DNA from: Candidatus Cloacimonadales bacterium
GTDB lineage: Bacteria; Cloacimonadota; Cloacimonadia; Cloacimonadales; JAFGVF01
Direction of reading: 5' to 3'
DNA length: 64,000 nucleotides
Assembly (NCBI GenBank): GCA_963663475.2
Contig: CAXXJV010000001.1
Location: forward strand, 704,001-768,000
Shown: piece after piece, positions 1-62,448 of the stretch
How positions within the stretch are numbered: the first letter of the stretch is position 1
Layout of the letters: the number at the start of each line of letters is the position of its first letter
The notes under the pieces: model-generated
Seen by the model: only the letters and a program-made list of their open reading frames with translations
The model's database searches: none
What the model was told of the DNA's origin: nothing
Made by a program: the position numbers and the translations under genes

Positions 1-260
1 TAGAACTGGAAAGGCAATATATTAAAGCTAAATGCCAACTACCAATCAAAGTGTATTATCAGAATATAATAGTAGGTGATTACTTCGCAGATATTGTAGT
101 AGGAAATAAGATAATTTTAGAATTAAAACATGTTAATGAGCTAAACCTAGCACACGAAGCACATTTGTTAAATTACCTTAAAGCTACAGGTATAAAAGTT
201 GGCTATTGGATAAACTTTGGAAAACCAAATGGTTTAGATTTTAAAAGATTAGTCTTTTAA
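1..260 (+). CDS. GxxExxY family protein (5'-truncated by window edge)
   Basis: Frame is open back to the window edge (ELERQYIKAKCQLPIKVYYQ...). YFADIVV..KIILELK..AHEAHLLNYLKATG..G..INFG is the typical GxxExxY C-terminal half; paralog at 33570. Confidence 0.85.
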   Translation, partial: ELERQYIKAKCQLPIKVYYQNIIVGDYFADIVVGNKIILELKHVNELNLAHEAHLLNYLKATGIKVGYWINFGKPNGLDFKRLVF

Positions 261-49063: not shown

Positions 49064-49086
49064 AAAATATAATCATGGAGGAATAC

Positions 49087-49452
49087 ATGTCCGATAAAAA
49101 ACAGCAAATTATTGATCTTGTAAAAGAGATGAGTGTAATGGAGTTATCCGAATTAGTTACTGAAATGGAAGAAATTTTTGGTGTATCAGCAGCAGCTGCT
49201 GTTGCTGTAGCTGCAGGTCCTGCAGAAGCTGCAGAAGAGAAAACAGAATTTGATGTTGTTCTTGTAAGCGCAGGTGCTAAAAAGATTAATGTAATTAAGG
49301 CTGTAAGAGAAATCACCAAACTTGGTCTTAAAGAAGCAAAAGGCTTGGTAGATACAGCTCCACAAACAGTTGCAGAAGCAGTCACAAAAGATGAAGCTGA
49401 AGCAATGAAGAAATCATTTGAAGATGCTGGTGCAACAGTAGAAATCAAATAA
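49087..49452 (+). CDS. rplL: 50S ribosomal protein L7/L12
   Basis: [37 protein letters not shown]; ggagga SD before ATG 49087. Confidence 0.98.
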
Positions 49453-49475: not shown

Positions 49476-49513
49476 GGAAGTGGGCCTTTAGGCTCATTTC
49501 CCTATTTTATTTT
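49476..49513 (+). terminator. rplL-rpoB attenuator/terminator-like hairpin
   Basis: ggaagtgggcc-ttta-ggctcatttcc followed by a T-rich tail. Confidence 0.6.
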
Positions 49514-49642: not shown

Positions 49643-52600
49643 TTGAAAAAGTTCAAAAGTTATTCCAGAATATCCAAGAAATTTATCGAGTTGGGAATAC
49701 CGCAAGTAGAAGTACCAAATCTTTTATCTATGCAGGTTGATTCTTTTGAAGATTTTATTCAAAAAGATGTTCATCCCCAACAGCGAACTAATTTCGGATT
49801 GCAAGCTGTTTTTGAGAATTTATTTCCCATCACAGACCCAAAAGAAAACTATGAATTAGAATTTGTAGAATACCGAATCTTAAAAGAAAAATATTCAATT
49901 GATGAATGTATTGAAAGAAATTTATCGTACCAAGTTCCCTTAAAAATAAAATTAAGATTAAAAGTCTATGAAGTTGATGAAAATGAAAGTTTTGATATCA
50001 TCGTAGATTCTGTCGGTAGTAATACAAATGATGTAAAGCAGTTTTTAATAACAGGTCTAAATTGGGATGAAGTTTCAGCTACAAATATACTGGAAGCAGT
50101 AGAAACTAATGAAGATACCAATAGGATAATTAATTCTTGTGATGAAGCTGAAGACGCAAAACAAATTCTGAACACCTTAAAAACTTTCGGAGTAACAGGA
50201 AGAATCCAAAAGAGGATTGATAAAACAAGAACTCTGAGAGATATAATGGAACAAGAAGTTTTCCTAGGTGATATTCCTTTAATTACAGAACAAGGAACGT
50301 TCGTAATTAACGGAGCTGAAAGAGTCATTATATCACAGTTACAAAGATCACCTGGTGTGTATTTTTCTGAAGAGAAACACCCAAGTGGAAAGATGCTTAT
50401 ATCATCAAAAATTATCCCATATAATGGAAGCTGGTTAGAATTCCATATCGACATACATGATGTTGTATTTGTGAATATCGATAAAAGAAGAAAGTTACCT
50501 GTGTCTATTCTGCTTAGAGCTGTTGGATATATTCCAGACAACTATACAGAAATTCCTGAAGCTAGAGAAACTCTCCGTCTCTCTGACGAAAAAGGTAATG
50601 TTTCCTTAAAAGCAAAAAATTCTTATGCATATGCTGATATTTATGATCCTCGTGAGGGTCGTGAAGACCAGATATTAGTTAAGGCAAAAACAAAACTTAA
50701 CAACGAAATTGTTGAAGAATTATTAAGTGCTGGTATCATTGAAATTGATACAATAAATAATAAATATATCTCTACAGATACAGTTCTTAGAGAAATCTTC
50801 TATGATATTGAAGAAATCTCTACCAATAAGGCTGAAAAGAGATTTACTGCTTATGAAATCATCGCATCTGATGGTTCTTTATTAGCAGAAGCTAATACTG
50901 AAATTGATAAAGAACTTATTAAAGATCTTATTGATTGTGGTATTAAAAAAGTTAAAGTTGTTTCTGAAGAGAGTGATTTTAATCGTAAGATTTTAGAGAA
51001 GACACTCCTTAAAGATCCAACACGTAATCAAGAAGAAGCTGCTCAAAAAATCTATAGTTTAGTTAGACCAGGCGAAGATGAAGTGCCTATTGAAAATGCT
51101 ATGGATCTTATTGATAAAATGTTCTTTAACTCAAAAAGATATAATTTAGGTAATGTGGGAAGACATAAGTTAAATGCTAAATTAGGTTTTGAGCCTGATT
51201 ATGGTACTAATGTTCTTACCCAGAAAGATTTTACAGAAATTATTCATTATATGATTGCTATTTTCAAGGATGAAAAAGATATCGATGATATTGATCACCT
51301 TGCAAATAGAAGAGTTAGAACTGTTGGCGAACTCTTAGAAGAGCAATATAAGACAGGTCTATCTATGATAGCTAGAATTGCTTTAGAAAGAATGGCTATT
51401 GCTAATCCTGATGAGGTTACTGTTCATGATTTGATTAACAGTAATGCGCTTATCACAGTTATTGATTCATTCTTCTTAACAGGTCAGCTTTCACAGTTTA
51501 TGGACCAAACTAATCCTCTTTCTGCTCTTACTCATAAGAGAAGATTGTCTGCTTTAGGACCTGGTGGTTTGGCCAGAGATAGAGCTGGTTTTGAAGTACG
51601 TGATATTCACTACTCTCATTACGGCAGAATCTGTCCGATTGAAACACCTGAAGGACCAAGTATTGGACTTCTAAATTCTCCAGCTATTTATTCGCGTATT
51701 AATGAGTTTGGCTTCTTAGAAACTCCTTATATTAGAGTAGAAAATGGTGTAATTACTAATAGAGTTGATTATTTAGATGCTCATGAAGAGGATAAGTATA
51801 TTATTGCTCAGCATGTAAATATTGATGATGATTTAGTTATTACAGATAAATATATCTTTGCTCGTGAAAAGGATGAATATGTCAATGTTACTCCAGAACA
51901 AATTGATTACATTGATGTTTCTCCACAGCAAGTTGTATCAGTATCAGCAGCATTGGTTCCATTCTTGGAACATGATGATGCTAACCGTGCTTTGATGGGA
52001 TCTAACATGCAGAGACAATCTGTTCCACTGTTAAATCCTCAAACACCTATTATAGGTACTGGTATTGAGAAGATAGTTGCCAGAGAATCTGGTGCTGTTA
52101 TTTTAGCTAAATATAATGGTGAAGTAACTAATGTTACTGCTGAATATATTGATATTAAACCTGATGCATCTAATGATGATATCGATTTAATTAGAGAAGA
52201 AAGAGTTTACTTAAAGAAATATGTGAGATCTAATCAAGATACATGTATTAACCAACGTCCTATTGTCAAGATTGGAGATAAGGTTACTAAAGGACAGCCA
52301 ATATCTGATGGGCCTGGTATCGAAGGAGATAGATTAGCCCTTGGTTCTAATATGGTTGTTGCTTTCATGCCTTGGTATGGATATAACTATGAGGATGCTA
52401 TTATTCTTAGTGAACATGTGGCACGTAAAGATACTCTTACCTCAATCTATATCGAAGAGTTAGAAGTTCTTGTTAGAGATTTAAAGAACGGAAAAGAAGA
52501 GCTAGCAAGTGATATTCCTAATGTCCCTGTTAATTCTTTAAGAAACTTAGATAAATCTGGTATTATCAGAGTTGGTTCTGTTATTACTGCTGGCGATGTT

Positions 52601-53887
52601 ATCGTTGGTAAAATAACACCTAAGTCTGTTGAAATTGATCCTTCTCCAGAAGAAAACTTAATGAGAGCTCTCTTTGGTGATCGAGCTGGTGACTATACTA
52701 ATAGTTCATTAAAAGCAAAACCTGGAATGGAAGGTGTTGTTCTTGATGTAAAAGTTTTCTCTCGTTATGAAGATATTATTGAATTTGAAGAAGATCATAA
52801 GGCTCAAATAGCTAAACTTAAAAAAGATAATATAGAAAGAAAGAAAAAGATCGAAAACTTTAAGAAAGAGAAACTTAGTGAACTTCTATTAGGACAGGTT
52901 GCTAAGAACATCGTTGATTCTAAAGATGGTAGATTCTATATTCTTTCTGGAAAGAAAATTACTGCTTCTGACTTAGAAAAGATTAACTTCTCAAGAGTTA
53001 ATTTAGAAGTTGAGATGGTGGCAGATCCTGAGAAATATAAAGAGATATACAAAACTGTAGCTTTGAAAGCAAATGAAGCTATGGAAGAGAGCGAAAATAT
53101 CTATAAGAAGTCAAGAGATAGAATCAAACATGGTGATGAACTTCCTTATGGTGTTCGCAAAATGGTCAAAGTCTATATTGCTAAAAAGAGAAAAATTCAA
53201 GTTGGTGATAAGATGGCTGGACGTCATGGTAACAAAGGTGTTATATCTATCGTTGCTCCAATTGAAGATATGCCATTCATGAGCGACGGTACTCCAGTTG
53301 ATATCGTACTTAATCCACTTGGTGTTCCTTCTCGTATGAATATCGGACAGATCATGGAAACTCACCTTGGTATGGCAGCTAAAACTTTAGGATTCCATGT
53401 GGAAACTCCTATATTTGATGGTGCTAAAATTGAGGATATTGAAGCTGAACTTAGAGAGGCTAATTTACCTACTGATGGTAAACAAGTCCTATATGATGGA
53501 AAAACTGGTGAACCTTTCAAAGAAAGAGTTACTGTTGGCGTCATGTATATGATGAAACTTAATCACTTGGTTGCAGATAAAATGCATGCCCGTTCAACTG
53601 GGCCATACTCATTGATTACCCAACAACCTCTTGGTGGTAAGGCTCAACATGGTGGACAACGTCTTGGAGAGATGGAAGTCTGGGCTTTAGAAGCTTATGG
53701 TGCTGCCCATCTTTTAGAAGAGATGTTAACAATCAAATCTGATGATGTCGATGGAAGAACTAATGCTTTCAAAGCGATAACCAATGGACAGAACCCACCT
53801 GCACCAGGTACTCCAGAATCATTTAATGTCTTAATTAGTGAATTAAAGTCTCTTGCTTTTGATATAGAGTTCTTAAAAGATGAGTAG
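49643..53887 (+). CDS. rpoB: RNA polymerase beta subunit
   Basis: QLSQFMDQTNPL, HDDANRALMGSNMQRQ, GDKMAGRHGNKG, GQRLGEMEVWALEAYG; contains insertions. Confidence 0.99.
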   Translation: MKKFKSYSRISKKFIELGIPQVEVPNLLSMQVDSFEDFIQKDVHPQQRTNFGLQAVFENLFPITDPKENYELEFVEYRILKEKYSIDECIERNLSYQVPLKIKLRLKVYEVDENESFDIIVDSVGSNTNDVKQFLITGLNWDEVSATNILEAVETNEDTNRIINSCDEAEDAKQILNTLKTFGVTGRIQKRIDKTRTLRDIMEQEVFLGDIPLITEQGTFVINGAERVIISQLQRSPGVYFSEEKHPSGKMLISSKIIPYNGSWLEFHIDIHDVVFVNIDKRRKLPVSILLRAVGYIPDNYTEIPEARETLRLSDEKGNVSLKAKNSYAYADIYDPREGREDQILVKAKTKLNNEIVEELLSAGIIEIDTINNKYISTDTVLREIFYDIEEISTNKAEKRFTAYEIIASDGSLLAEANTEIDKELIKDLIDCGIKKVKVVSEESDFNRKILEKTLLKDPTRNQEEAAQKIYSLVRPGEDEVPIENAMDLIDKMFFNSKRYNLGNVGRHKLNAKLGFEPDYGTNVLTQKDFTEIIHYMIAIFKDEKDIDDIDHLANRRVRTVGELLEEQYKTGLSMIARIALERMAIANPDEVTVHDLINSNALITVIDSFFLTGQLSQFMDQTNPLSALTHKRRLSALGPGGLARDRAGFEVRDIHYSHYGRICPIETPEGPSIGLLNSPAIYSRINEFGFLETPYIRVENGVITNRVDYLDAHEEDKYIIAQHVNIDDDLVITDKYIFAREKDEYVNVTPEQIDYIDVSPQQVVSVSAALVPFLEHDDANRALMGSNMQRQSVPLLNPQTPIIGTGIEKIVARESGAVILAKYNGEVTNVTAEYIDIKPDASNDDIDLIREERVYLKKYVRSNQDTCINQRPIVKIGDKVTKGQPISDGPGIEGDRLALGSNMVVAFMPWYGYNYEDAIILSEHVARKDTLTSIYIEELEVLVRDLKNGKEELASDIPNVPVNSLRNLDKSGIIRVGSVITAGDVIVGKITPKSVEIDPSPEENLMRALFGDRAGDYTNSSLKAKPGMEGVVLDVKVFSRYEDIIEFEEDHKAQIAKLKKDNIERKKKIENFKKEKLSELLLGQVAKNIVDSKDGRFYILSGKKITASDLEKINFSRVNLEVEMVADPEKYKEIYKTVALKANEAMEESENIYKKSRDRIKHGDELPYGVRKMVKVYIAKKRKIQVGDKMAGRHGNKGVISIVAPIEDMPFMSDGTPVDIVLNPLGVPSRMNIGQIMETHLGMAAKTLGFHVETPIFDGAKIEDIEAELREANLPTDGKQVLYDGKTGEPFKERVTVGVMYMMKLNHLVADKMHARSTGPYSLITQQPLGGKAQHGGQRLGEMEVWALEAYGAAHLLEEMLTIKSDDVDGRTNAFKAITNGQNPPAPGTPESFNVLISELKSLAFDIEFLKDE

Positions 53888-59873: not shown

Positions 59874-61682
59874 TTGAAAATAAATAGATTACTGCTTATT
59901 ATTATATCACTCTTTGGTCTTACACTTCTTTTAAGTGAAGAACCAATTCTTCATTATCTACTTGAGCCTGGTAAACTGTCTTATCATGTTGTAGAAAAGA
60001 AGGATATATTAAATACAGACAATCTAAATTCTGATTTATTAAATTGGAAAGAGATTGATTATCTGACTTACAAAGAGAAAAAGACAATAGATAAACTCCT
60101 TTATAGATTAGAGTTACCTGATAGTCTCTCAACAGATAAAAACCGAGTATTCTTTATCGGTTATTACACCCCTTTTAGGGTTTATTATAATTCTCAAGAA
60201 GTTTATGCCGATACAAGTCGGTCACAATTTGTTCATCTCTTTACCTTAGATTATTCGCAGGATGAGAGATTTGTATATTTTTTATACGACGAAGTAATTG
60301 CTGGTTATCCAGTTCCCTTTTCTCTTGTTTTTTTAAATGAAGACTTAACTGATACCCCATTCGTATATTTGATTATAGAACTTATCTTTGTTCAAATGCT
60401 CAACTATTCAGTATCCATCTTCTTCTTTCTAATTTCCTTGATAAGTCTCTTTCTTCTTCTGAGAAGCTCAAAATCTATAAAAAAATACGTTTTTGCTGTC
60501 TTTATCTATTCTCTTATTATTGGATTAGATCATGGGCTAAACACCCTGCTTATGGCCTATTTTGGAATATCTCCTAAAATATTCTATTGGATAGATTCAA
60601 TGATGTTCCAACTCTTCTTAATAATGATTGTTACAATGGCCGATTATGTTTTTTCAGATGGTAGATCAAGATTCTTACGCTTTTTAAAATATCTAATTAT
60701 TGCTATAACAATAGTTAATTTCCTTGTTACTAATTATGTTCAATTTTATAAAATATTCGATTTCTTCAACATTTCCCTCTATATTACTACTATACTTTAT
60801 CTCATCTTCTACCTAATCAAAAAGTTTAAATATATTAGGGAGAAACTAAACATCTTTATAGCTTTAATCTTTATTCTAGCTCCTCTATTAATGTTTGTAA
60901 CCAGAAATTTTAAATATGTACCTTATATATCTTCAGTATATGTTTTAATCTCAGTTTCTATCCTCTATATTTTTGTTTATAACTTCTTTGCTAGGTTTAG
61001 GAAAAATGAAGCAAGCTTGGTAAATACCAAGATTGATTTACAGGAAAAGGAAAATGAAATTCTTAGACTTGAGAAAGATAGACTGAAAAAAAGTGTATCA
61101 CACCTCAAAGGCCAGTTAAATCCTCACTTCTTATTTAATAGCTTATCTACTCTTACAGGGATTATTCCTACTGATACAGACAAAGCTGTAAGTTATGTAG
61201 AAGAACTATCAAATATGTATCGCTACATTTTGCAAACAGATAATAAAGAACTCATTGATTTAGAATCTGAACTTGAACTTTTAGATTCCTATAATTACTT
61301 AGTAAGTATGAAATATGGTAAGAATTACCAGCTAGATGTCAATATAGATGATGATTATCTAGACTGTAAATTACCACCTCTCTCTATTCAAACCATGATC
61401 GAAAATATATTTAAGCATAACACTATTGATCAGAATCATAAAATGAAGATTGACATTTTTATTGATAGTATGTATATTGTAATTATCAATGATATTCATA
61501 AAAAAGAATCAGCTTTCCAATATAAAGAAAAGAAAGCTGGTATTGGTCAGCAAAACATTACAGCTATTTATCAATATTATAGTGAAAGAAAGCCTATTTA
61601 TGAGATAAAGAATAATAAATACATTGTTAAAATACCCCTAATAAATAAGGATGTACAATATGTTAAAGATATTAATTATTGA
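59874..61682 (+). CDS. LytS/YehU-type membrane histidine kinase
   Basis: Periplasmic N-domain, about 7 TMs, LKGQLNPHFLFNSL, YRYIL, LPPLSIQTMIENIFKHN, GIG. Confidence 0.9.
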   Translation: MKINRLLLIIISLFGLTLLLSEEPILHYLLEPGKLSYHVVEKKDILNTDNLNSDLLNWKEIDYLTYKEKKTIDKLLYRLELPDSLSTDKNRVFFIGYYTPFRVYYNSQEVYADTSRSQFVHLFTLDYSQDERFVYFLYDEVIAGYPVPFSLVFLNEDLTDTPFVYLIIELIFVQMLNYSVSIFFFLISLISLFLLLRSSKSIKKYVFAVFIYSLIIGLDHGLNTLLMAYFGISPKIFYWIDSMMFQLFLIMIVTMADYVFSDGRSRFLRFLKYLIIAITIVNFLVTNYVQFYKIFDFFNISLYITTILYLIFYLIKKFKYIREKLNIFIALIFILAPLLMFVTRNFKYVPYISSVYVLISVSILYIFVYNFFARFRKNEASLVNTKIDLQEKENEILRLEKDRLKKSVSHLKGQLNPHFLFNSLSTLTGIIPTDTDKAVSYVEELSNMYRYILQTDNKELIDLESELELLDSYNYLVSMKYGKNYQLDVNIDDDYLDCKLPPLSIQTMIENIFKHNTIDQNHKMKIDIFIDSMYIVIINDIHKKESAFQYKEKKAGIGQQNITAIYQYYSERKPIYEIKNNKYIVKIPLINKDVQYVKDINY

Positions 61683-62448
61683 AGATGAAGAAATAATTGC
61701 CCAAAGATTAGTACAGTTGCTTGATCAGATTAATTTTGATTACCAATTATGTAAGATTATTGGGTCAGTTCAAGAATCTATTGAGTGGTTATCAGAAAAT
61801 GAACATCCAGATCTTATTTTTGCTGATATACAACTTTCTGATGGAAATAGCTTCTCAATTTTTAAAGCCATAAATGTTAGCTCAAAAATTATCTTTACTA
61901 CCTCTTATGATGAGTTTGCTCTTGATGCTTTTAAAGTTAATAGTATAGATTACCTGCTCAAACCTATCACAGCAAAAAAACTTGAAAAATCATTTGCTAA
62001 GCTGGAAGAGATGTCCAAAATATTTTCCCAAGATAATGAAAATGGGGTAGAGAATAATCAAAATGAAATTAATAATTTACTAGAGTACCTAGATACTAAG
62101 GATAAAGACTATAGAAATAGATTCTTAATTAAAATGGGTAATGCTTATAAATCGATTCCTGCTAACGAAATTGCTTACTTCTTTGTTTCAAATAAAACGA
62201 CATATTTACTAACATTTAATAAGAAAAAATACTCTCTAGATACACCTTTAGATGAGCTAGACAAAGAGTTAGATCCAAAACTATTCTTTAGAATAAACCG
62301 CCAAATGATAATCAATATTAATGCTATAAAAGAAATTCATACCTTCTTCAATAGCAGACTTCTCTTAAACATTGAACCAGAATTTGATGAAGATGTTCTA
62401 GTTACCAGGTCTAATATAGCAAACTTTAAAGAGTGGATGAATACTTAA
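61660..62448 (+). CDS. LytTR-family response regulator
   Basis: IIEDE, DIQLSDG, FTTSYDE, DYLLKP, FFRINRQ. Confidence 0.93.
   Translation: MLKILIIEDEEIIAQRLVQLLDQINFDYQLCKIIGSVQESIEWLSENEHPDLIFADIQLSDGNSFSIFKAINVSSKIIFTTSYDEFALDAFKVNSIDYLLKPITAKKLEKSFAKLEEMSKIFSQDNENGVENNQNEINNLLEYLDTKDKDYRNRFLIKMGNAYKSIPANEIAYFFVSNKTTYLLTFNKKKYSLDTPLDELDKELDPKLFFRINRQMIININAIKEIHTFFNSRLLLNIEPEFDEDVLVTRSNIANFKEWMNT

Follow-up and report, generated by a model that had tools for sequence, protein, structure and literature searches.

Lineage-specific insertions in the beta subunit of the RNA polymerase (RNAP) of bacteria are known in kind, the BEAN/BBM2-type insertions beta-i4 (SI1) and beta-i9 (SI2) of E. coli and the insertions of types 2-4 being among those described (PMC11515920). 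Alvarez-Carreno et al. (2024, PMC11515920) place the beta insertions at five sites, of which uD2 has two and uD3, uD5 and uD4 have one each, and argue that insertions 'tapered off after early evolution'; their paper makes no mention of L12. Here a further insertion is described, in the rpoB gene of a Candidatus Cloacimonadales bacterium, that was found in a window of 64,000 nucleotides (the whole stretch of DNA that was analysed: positions 704,001 to 768,000 of the forward strand of contig CAXXJV010000001.1, assembly GCA_963663475.2). It lies in the beta1 domain (protrusion) of RpoB, by alignment directly before the strand on which the repair factor Mfd docks, and it probably has the fold that the C-terminal domain (CTD) has in ribosomal protein bL12 (L7/L12). 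As far as the available part of PMC11515920 goes, it resembles the insertions described there in being an in-frame, clade-restricted and surface-exposed extra domain, one that is set in a loop of a universal RpoB domain and is under weaker constraint than the core. It appears to differ from them in three respects: the insert is at another site, it resembles L12 rather than BEAN/BBM2 (CATH 3.90.105.10) and probably belongs to a different fold family, and it is young, its gain being family-level and recent.

The core of beta1, the host domain of the insert, is a four-stranded sheet (Westblade et al. 2010, PMC3001067), the RNAP-interacting domain (RID) of Mfd (TRCF) extends this sheet along strand 4 at Taq G106-E110, and Taq I108/K109/E110 are the equivalents of E. 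coli I117/K118/E119 (PMC3001067). The Taq loop 103-105 is flexible and surface-exposed, and takes up the shift in register of strand 4 that is needed for RID binding (PMC3001067). In each of the seven Mfd states the RID keeps its anchorage to the beta protrusion, with the translocase domain TD2 also pushing the protrusion (Kang et al. 2021, PMC7864632), and the RID of CarD uses the same beta1 surface, placing the C-terminal domain of CarD at the -12/-11 junction (Bae et al. 2015, PMC4593161; Sanders et al. 2017, PMC5397179).

A first-pass annotation of the window, made from the letters, had noticed extra residues at 49988-50212 (+), and the translation there reads exactly as it was quoted (SFDIIVDS...GVTGRIQK), within one RpoB open reading frame (ORF) and between KLRLKVYE and EQEVFLGDIP, where the loop is indeed normally short. 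The identity of the gene is clear, with six Rpb2 Pfam domains in RpoB (E 1e-16 to 1e-127), and the match to Rpb2_1 is interrupted after RpoB residue 117. KxKLRL and EQxVFLGxIP stand 96 residues apart in the eight genomes that carry the insert; in 23 other rows, from 22 genomes, they are separated by 16-22 residues, and in 7 further rows one of the two motifs was unmatched by the pattern. In five of five related insert-free genomes the flanks (query 2-110/115 and 193/196-286) are only 9-15 nucleotides apart, within ORFs of 1265-1275 amino acids, and named Cloacimonadota RpoBs (1258-1260 amino acids) read ...FENREGERVFKDVIEQDVFLGEIP at the site where the window has 96 residues. Residues 112-194 of RpoB are a true in-frame insertion, with a net gain of about 80 residues. 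The inserted sequence is acidic, with an isoelectric point (pI) of 4.2 and 17 D/E against 8 K/R, and its GC content equals that of rpoB. Its end is different in character, as the 12-residue stretch 186-197 has 5 K/R against 1 D/E and a pI of 11.7, and the sequence RIQKRIDKTR within it is invariant in all 10 insert sequences.

It is apparent that the insert is restricted to a small group of bacteria, being found in 8 of 41 related genomes: all seven of the window's genus (the window genome included) and the only one of a second genus, with none of the four genomes of a third genus in the same family and none of the 29 that belong to the order's other families. In a set of 5.8 billion protein clusters the insert is covered by only 12 RpoBs (84-100% identical in the region), plus two fragments, and a scan of metagenomes gave only two insert loci, which are near-identical. 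In a tree of 172 flanking residues and 17 rows the insert rows form one clade, with support of 100/100 and a long stem of 0.26 changes per column, and for this reason one gain suffices to account for the distribution. The ratio of nonsynonymous to synonymous change (dN/dS) is 0.12-0.20 in the insert against 0-0.07 in its flanks, thus the insert is constrained, and synonymous change between the two insert genera is saturated (dS 1.2). Over 10 sequences 59 of the 91 columns are invariant, including a C-terminal stretch of 31 residues, the whole of the last third. The insert was recently acquired, has a single origin and is selectively maintained, and it is neither an assembly artefact nor a neutral spacer. 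An ORF on the opposite strand overlaps the insert, with the purifying selection seen in the + frame.

The site of the insert was found by alignment to solved RpoBs, in which query residues 105-112 align with E. coli 101-108 (window 110-112 falling on E. coli 106-108), T197 falls on E. coli T113 and I201 on Thermus I108, so that I201-M202-E203 correspond to Taq I108-K109-E110 and E. coli I117-K118-E119. With the beta1 strands named as in PMC3001067, this alignment puts the insert in the loop between strands 3 and 4 of the beta1 sheet, directly before the docking strand of the Mfd RID. In the five alignments examined, of 46 aligned, the solved RpoBs have at most 5 residues at this site. In the numbering of E. 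coli beta the site is at about 109-112, in the N-terminal segment of uD1 (residues 1-152), and it is at none of the five sites given in the available part of PMC11515920, a comparison with published catalogues having been proposed in the first-pass annotation.

The partner of this strand is present in the bacteria that carry the insert. One RID-bearing ORF of about 1140 amino acids per genome, read as Mfd, was found in 38 of the 41 genomes, among them all eight insert genomes, and the three genomes with no match to Mfd are 68-83% complete. A separate CarD was not found in these genomes, the RID-bearing ORF being the single Mfd-like one. The docking motif of Mfd, I-Y-V-P, is intact in the six insert-clade RIDs examined, and the f-o-f-P motif is present in 17 of 17 RIDs examined, 16 of which have [IV]YVP and one IYLP (genome G020). 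The possibility that the insert clade had lost Mfd, or the motif by which it docks, was also considered and was rejected, Mfd being in eight of eight insert genomes and the motif intact in the six RIDs.

The resemblance of the insert to the L12 CTD was first suggested by eye, and several comparisons point in the same direction. BLASTP of the insert against the genome's own L12 gives an alignment that starts at the first residue of the CTD, with 17 of 60 residues identical (E 0.08); in shuffle tests 95 of 5000 reach the Smith-Waterman score and 28-47 of 2000 reach the scores of the hidden Markov model (HMM). In a PDB set of 177,635 distinct sequences, of which 18 are L12, L7/L12 of T. maritima (1dd3_A) is the top match in four of five insert queries, with E 0.0077 for a profile of 10 insert sequences (runner-up 0.28), 0.021 for a profile of eight, 0.043 for the insert of the second genus alone and 0.32 for a metagenomic fragment alone. 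The E-value thus improves from 0.021 to 0.0077 with the diversity of the inserts, and the register is constant across the matching queries, with insert 4-68/75 on L12 54-118/122. Global alignment with hhalign scores 18.0 against 111 diverse L12 CTDs (P 0.0019, 69 columns) and 12.8 against 31 Cloacimonadota L12 CTDs (69 columns, 22% identity), and in the comparison with the 31 CTDs none of 300 column-permuted controls reaches the real score (mean 2.8, maximum 11.5). As a natural control 577 random 81-residue segments of the same genome's proteins gave a mean of 2.3, a standard deviation of 2.25 and a maximum of 13.1; three insert sequences score 13.3, 12.5 and 16.0 against the 111-CTD profile, values that are reached by 0, 1 and 0 of these segments. 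Taken singly, the 111 L12 CTDs have a median score of 12.3 against the insert, with null means of 2.3-3.0. Of the 17 Pfam-delimited domains in the window the L12 CTD is the best partner of the insert, both globally (10.5, the next being 7.0) and locally (14.1, the next being 13.6).

Comparison with the bL12 CTD itself (PDB 1dd3, 1ctf; PF00542) finds the two to be collinear over the whole domain and of similar length, about 75 residues in the insert and 67-68 in L12. They share an N-terminal F-D-hydrophobic strand, a G that follows strand 1, an I-T-x-L ahead of helix 2, a last helix that opens with an acidic D/E-E-A-E, and a final strand with G-x-T-x-x-I; of the three conserved L12 glycines the insert keeps two. 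At the 19 hydrophobic-core columns of L12 (at least 80% hydrophobic in 111 CTDs) the insert is hydrophobic in 14 (background 0.30), a count that is biased upward because the alignment was optimised for similarity. Unlike the L12 CTD the insert has two small extra loops and a longer last helix, and it is flanked on both sides by RpoB beta1, with no hinge to an L10-binding N-terminal domain (Ribosomal_L12_N matches only rplL). From the L12 alignment the order of elements in the core of the insert would be beta(FDIIVDSV)-alpha-alpha-beta(RIINS)-alpha(DEAEDAKQILNTLKTF)-beta(VTGRIQ), and it is likely that the insert has the beta-alpha-alpha-beta-alpha-beta fold of the L12 CTD. It is a little more probable that it descends from some bL12 CTD, as a diverged copy, than that it does not.

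Other evidence weighs against this reading. Whilst L12 is the best PDB match in four of five queries, the best of the 17 window domains and collinear with the insert throughout, PF00542 Ribosomal_L12 has no match to the insert in a Pfam listing to E 10 and NCBIfam places no families on it. A six-frame search of the genome with PF00542, with E up to 10, found only rplL. The hhalign probabilities are only 1-6%, and the natural control of 577 segments was drawn without phasing on domain boundaries. With filters off, an L12-CTD HMM run over 7363 genome ORFs left the insert unreported within full-length RpoB, and the score of the isolated insert (3.8 bits) lies below those of about 20 unrelated segments. 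In the reverse scan L12 is only 7th of 5508 domain rows (E 7.9), or 61st when a single sequence is used. When the insert sequence of the window is used by itself, its PDB match is ThiG (E 0.29) and not L12, and only one of the 18 PDB L12 sequences was ever matched. A phmmer search of 1.84 billion representatives gave three repeat proteins and no L12, the three being internally repetitive proteins matched in 7-12 stretches and read as spurious.

ClpS (PF02617) is classed with the L12 CTD in the 'ClpS-like' fold of SCOP, and its beta-alpha(2)-beta-alpha-beta order, with the N- and C-termini side by side, suits an insertion domain. A ClpS-like match of the insert had also been proposed in the first-pass annotation and was not borne out, there being no match of PF02617 to the insert in the Pfam listing to E 10. 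Nor was a ClpS gene found in the genome, which is 99% complete, the PF02617 search giving no matches with 3 candidates scored; therefore bL12 is the sole candidate donor of this fold type that was found.

The silence of Pfam and NCBIfam, the unremarkable genome-wide HMM ranks, the lack of an L12 match in the PDB for the window's own sequence and an hhalign probability of no more than 6% are all what would be expected of an orphan alpha/beta domain that is unrelated to bL12, arisen de novo or from an undetectable donor, in which the order of secondary structure and the motifs FD, TGL and DEAE are shared by chance or convergence. No homologue was found outside RpoB among the 1.84 billion representatives, and the other weak PDB and Pfam matches (ThiG, DHQS, synapsin, RsbX) are also alpha/beta segments. 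Yet chance would have to explain why the same L12 chain tops four of five PDB queries when L12 makes up 18 of 177,635 sequences, why its E-value improves as the inserts become more diverse, why the alignment runs end to end and in register, and why at most one of 577 natural segments scores as high. This explanation is considered rather unlikely, although no other rival is rated higher. The fold of the insert is one claim and its origin another, and it is doubtful that the CTD of the neighbouring rplL was recently duplicated into rpoB, the origin that the first-pass annotation had thought possible. Such an origin is favoured by both genes being in one operon, with the rplL CTD about 530 nucleotides upstream of the insertion site, by the L12 CTD being the best match among the 17 window domains, and by bL12 being the only donor of this fold type that was looked for and found in the genome. 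Against it, there is no similarity at the DNA level, the repeats between rplL and the insert being only short, out-of-register chance matches, and the insert is only 22-28% identical to the genome's own L12 whereas L12 CTDs within the phylum are 66-75% identical to that of the window. RpoB, too, is about 70% identical to that of insert-free relatives, and still the gain postdates the family. Nor is Cloacimonadota L12 a better-scoring match for the insert (median 10.9) than the L12 proteins from other phyla (median 13.1, best 23.8), and the insert has ITGL, the general motif, unlike the ITKL/ITNL/ITSL of L12 in its own phylum. It is possible that divergence was fast after capture, although this is an assumption. 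A free-standing donor was not found by phmmer in the 1.84 billion representatives, and a search of shorter proteins gave only two RpoB fragments.

A functional mimic of L12 on RNAP, binding translational GTPases or L11/L10 and linking transcription to translation, would fit with the resemblance to the L12 CTD and with an operon context that includes rplKAJL, tufA and nusG. In L12 the regions 66-70 and 80-85 bind EF-G and EF4 (PMC3505967), and of these 11 positions 3 are identical in the insert, with the E. coli numbering transferred on the assumption of equal CTD length. None of the eight conserved Lys/Arg columns of the factor-binding face on helices 4 and 5 is kept and every lysine is gone, confirming the earlier observation that the basic factor-binding residues are lost, whilst the insert has a reversed net charge (its pI is 4.2, that of the L12 CTD 5.4) and no N-terminal or hinge part of L12. 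With so few identical positions, the lysines lost and the module acidic, GTPase recruitment in the manner of L12 is unlikely, and it would appear that the insert does not work as L12. Such a mimic is highly improbable, and it is just as hard to credit that a captured bL12 CTD still contacts translation through weak binding of GTPases or L11, which would provide a factor-independent link between RNAP and translation on the Mfd side. Least probable of all is a neutral, largely unstructured spacer that is tolerated in a surface loop, a reading that the narrow distribution and the flexibility and exposure of the host loop in solved enzymes (PMC3001067) would allow, but that is opposed by the dN/dS of 0.12-0.20 with saturated dS (1.2) between genera, by the 59 of 91 invariant columns with their 31-residue C-terminal stretch, and by hydrophobic positions that are both regular and conserved.

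Taken as a whole, the reading that is preferred, by a modest measure, is that of a constrained acidic domain with the L12-CTD fold, probably a diverged copy of a bL12 CTD, that may tune the Mfd-side surface of RNAP. In this proposal the module would hang on the tip of a hairpin, to the second strand of which the Tudor-like RID of Mfd docks, on a face of the enzyme that looks toward the upstream DNA. As the host loop is the one that absorbs the register shift for RID binding, the module could tune or gate the access of RID factors to strand 4, with the binding of Mfd not abolished. This might occur through an altered freedom of the register-shifting loop, through contact with the RID or TD2, or through an extra acidic surface, turned toward the upstream DNA, that serves for docking or repels DNA. 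The proposal is drawn from the position of the insert, with the geometry taken from the published papers. The coordinates of the insert and of the other features considered are given in Table 1.

Table 1. Features of the insertion and of its surroundings, in window coordinates
Feature	Coordinates	Strand	Remarks
rplL (bL12)	49075..49452	+	125 aa (amino acids); Pfam Ribosomal_L12 1.2e-29, L12_N 1.3e-18; TIGR00855 9.7e-43
rplL C-terminal domain	49249-49449		residues 59-125
Terminator-like hairpin	49476-49501		11 pairs, then T-run
rpoB, RNA polymerase beta subunit	49643..53887	+	1414 aa, TTG start as listed; single ORF and translation
N-terminal anchor	49943..49975	+	residues 101-111 (KIKLRLKVYEV); corresponds to beta1 beta-strand 3 (Taq L98/L100 region)
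ORF antisense to rpoB	49966-50541		overlaps the insertion
Insertion	49976..50224	+	residues 112-194, 83 aa; replaces E. coli beta ~109-112 (Taq loop 103-105)
Insert core	49988..50212	+	residues 116-190; end-to-end alignment with bL12 C-terminal domain
Basic stretch	50201..50230	+	residues 187-196 (RIQKRIDKTR); last strand of the insert and return linker to beta1
Docking strand	50231..50254	+	residues 197-204 (TLRDIMEQ); corresponds to beta1 beta-strand 4, to which the Mfd/CarD RID docks
Beta-lobe extension	50528-50980		RpoB residues ~296-446
RpoC segment	57472-57726		residues ~1185-1269; extra relative to insert-free relatives
Histidine kinase and LytTR response regulator	59874-62445		3' of rpsL-rpsG
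Polysaccharide-biosynthesis cluster	1-36000		upstream of the translation/transcription operon

The beta1 insert is not the only enlargement of RNAP in this lineage. A second clade-specific extension, of about 75 residues, is found in the beta lobe, where the window has a segment of about 150 residues and Cloacimonadota RpoBs of about 1260 amino acids have about 75, and the relatives without the beta1 insert (ORFs of 1265-1275 amino acids) are also without this extension. It has only a sub-threshold Pfam match (DUF7398, E 0.002), and an internal duplication as its source was rejected as its two halves have no significant similarity (E 0.71). The RpoC of the window has 1581 amino acids, compared with 1499-1513 in four relatives without the RpoB insert, and as these four have no counterpart of query residues ~1185-1265 the same lineage has enlarged beta-prime too. 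In the second insert-bearing genus RpoC is longer still, at 1619 amino acids, with a further break at residue 527/528. The RpoC segment has no Pfam match, and its derivation from neighbouring beta-prime sequence was also rejected, there being no similarity to the preceding 310 residues.

The surroundings of rpoB are otherwise those of the usual cluster, tRNA-tufA-tRNATrp-nusG-rplKAJL-rpoBC-rpsLG. A terminator-like hairpin lies 24 nucleotides past the rplL stop and about 140 nucleotides before the rpoB start, and so occupies the place of the classical rplL-rpoB attenuator. On the 3' side of rpsL-rpsG, the usual place of fusA is taken by a histidine kinase (with a His_kinase domain) and by a response regulator of the LytTR kind. 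A large polysaccharide-biosynthesis cluster lies upstream of the operon for translation and transcription, with a nucleotidyl transferase, an FdtA-like isomerase, a DegT aminotransferase, several glycosyltransferases, a flippase, a UDP-glucose dehydrogenase and epimerases. Outside the window, the same genome has an ORF of 143 amino acids in at least 8 near-identical copies (e.g. C1_+1_70978 and C1_+0_454921) and one of 94 amino acids in at least 4 copies, which surfaced as weak chance matches in the HMM scans of the genome and are probably parts of an insertion sequence.

Extra residues in beta1 are found in another phylum, as the RpoBs of two Acidobacteriota genomes (L150 G079:C146 and L151 G080:C21, ORFs of 1491-1505 amino acids) have an additional 61 residues, set between the positions that match residues 79 and 80 of the window's RpoB. 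The window insert is at another beta1 site, in a different loop, and a shared insertion hot spot was rejected for this reason; unlike in the window, the loop between strands 3 and 4 is short in the Acidobacteriota RpoBs, with a gap of 2 residues. Neither an L12-like insert in RNAP nor an rpoB insert in Cloacimonadota is described in the literature searched, a scope to which the catalogues of Lane & Darst (2010) and the supplements of PMC11515920 do not belong.

Only two genera of uncultured Cloacimonadota-like bacteria have the module, and what is said here of its fold and of its function is a proposal made from sequence and position. If the proposed fold is true, this would be the first ribosomal-protein domain grafted into a bacterial RNAP, as far as the searches reached, and it would add an insertion site beyond those in the available part of the 2024 catalogue (PMC11515920). 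It would also mean that RNAP still gains domains at the level of the family, and two more clade-specific inserts, one in the beta lobe and one in beta-prime, were gained by this lineage, which runs counter to the view that RNAP insertions ceased early. As the insert sits in a loop that must flex for the RID of Mfd to dock, it may provide a natural experiment on the access of transcription-coupled repair factors to RNAP.

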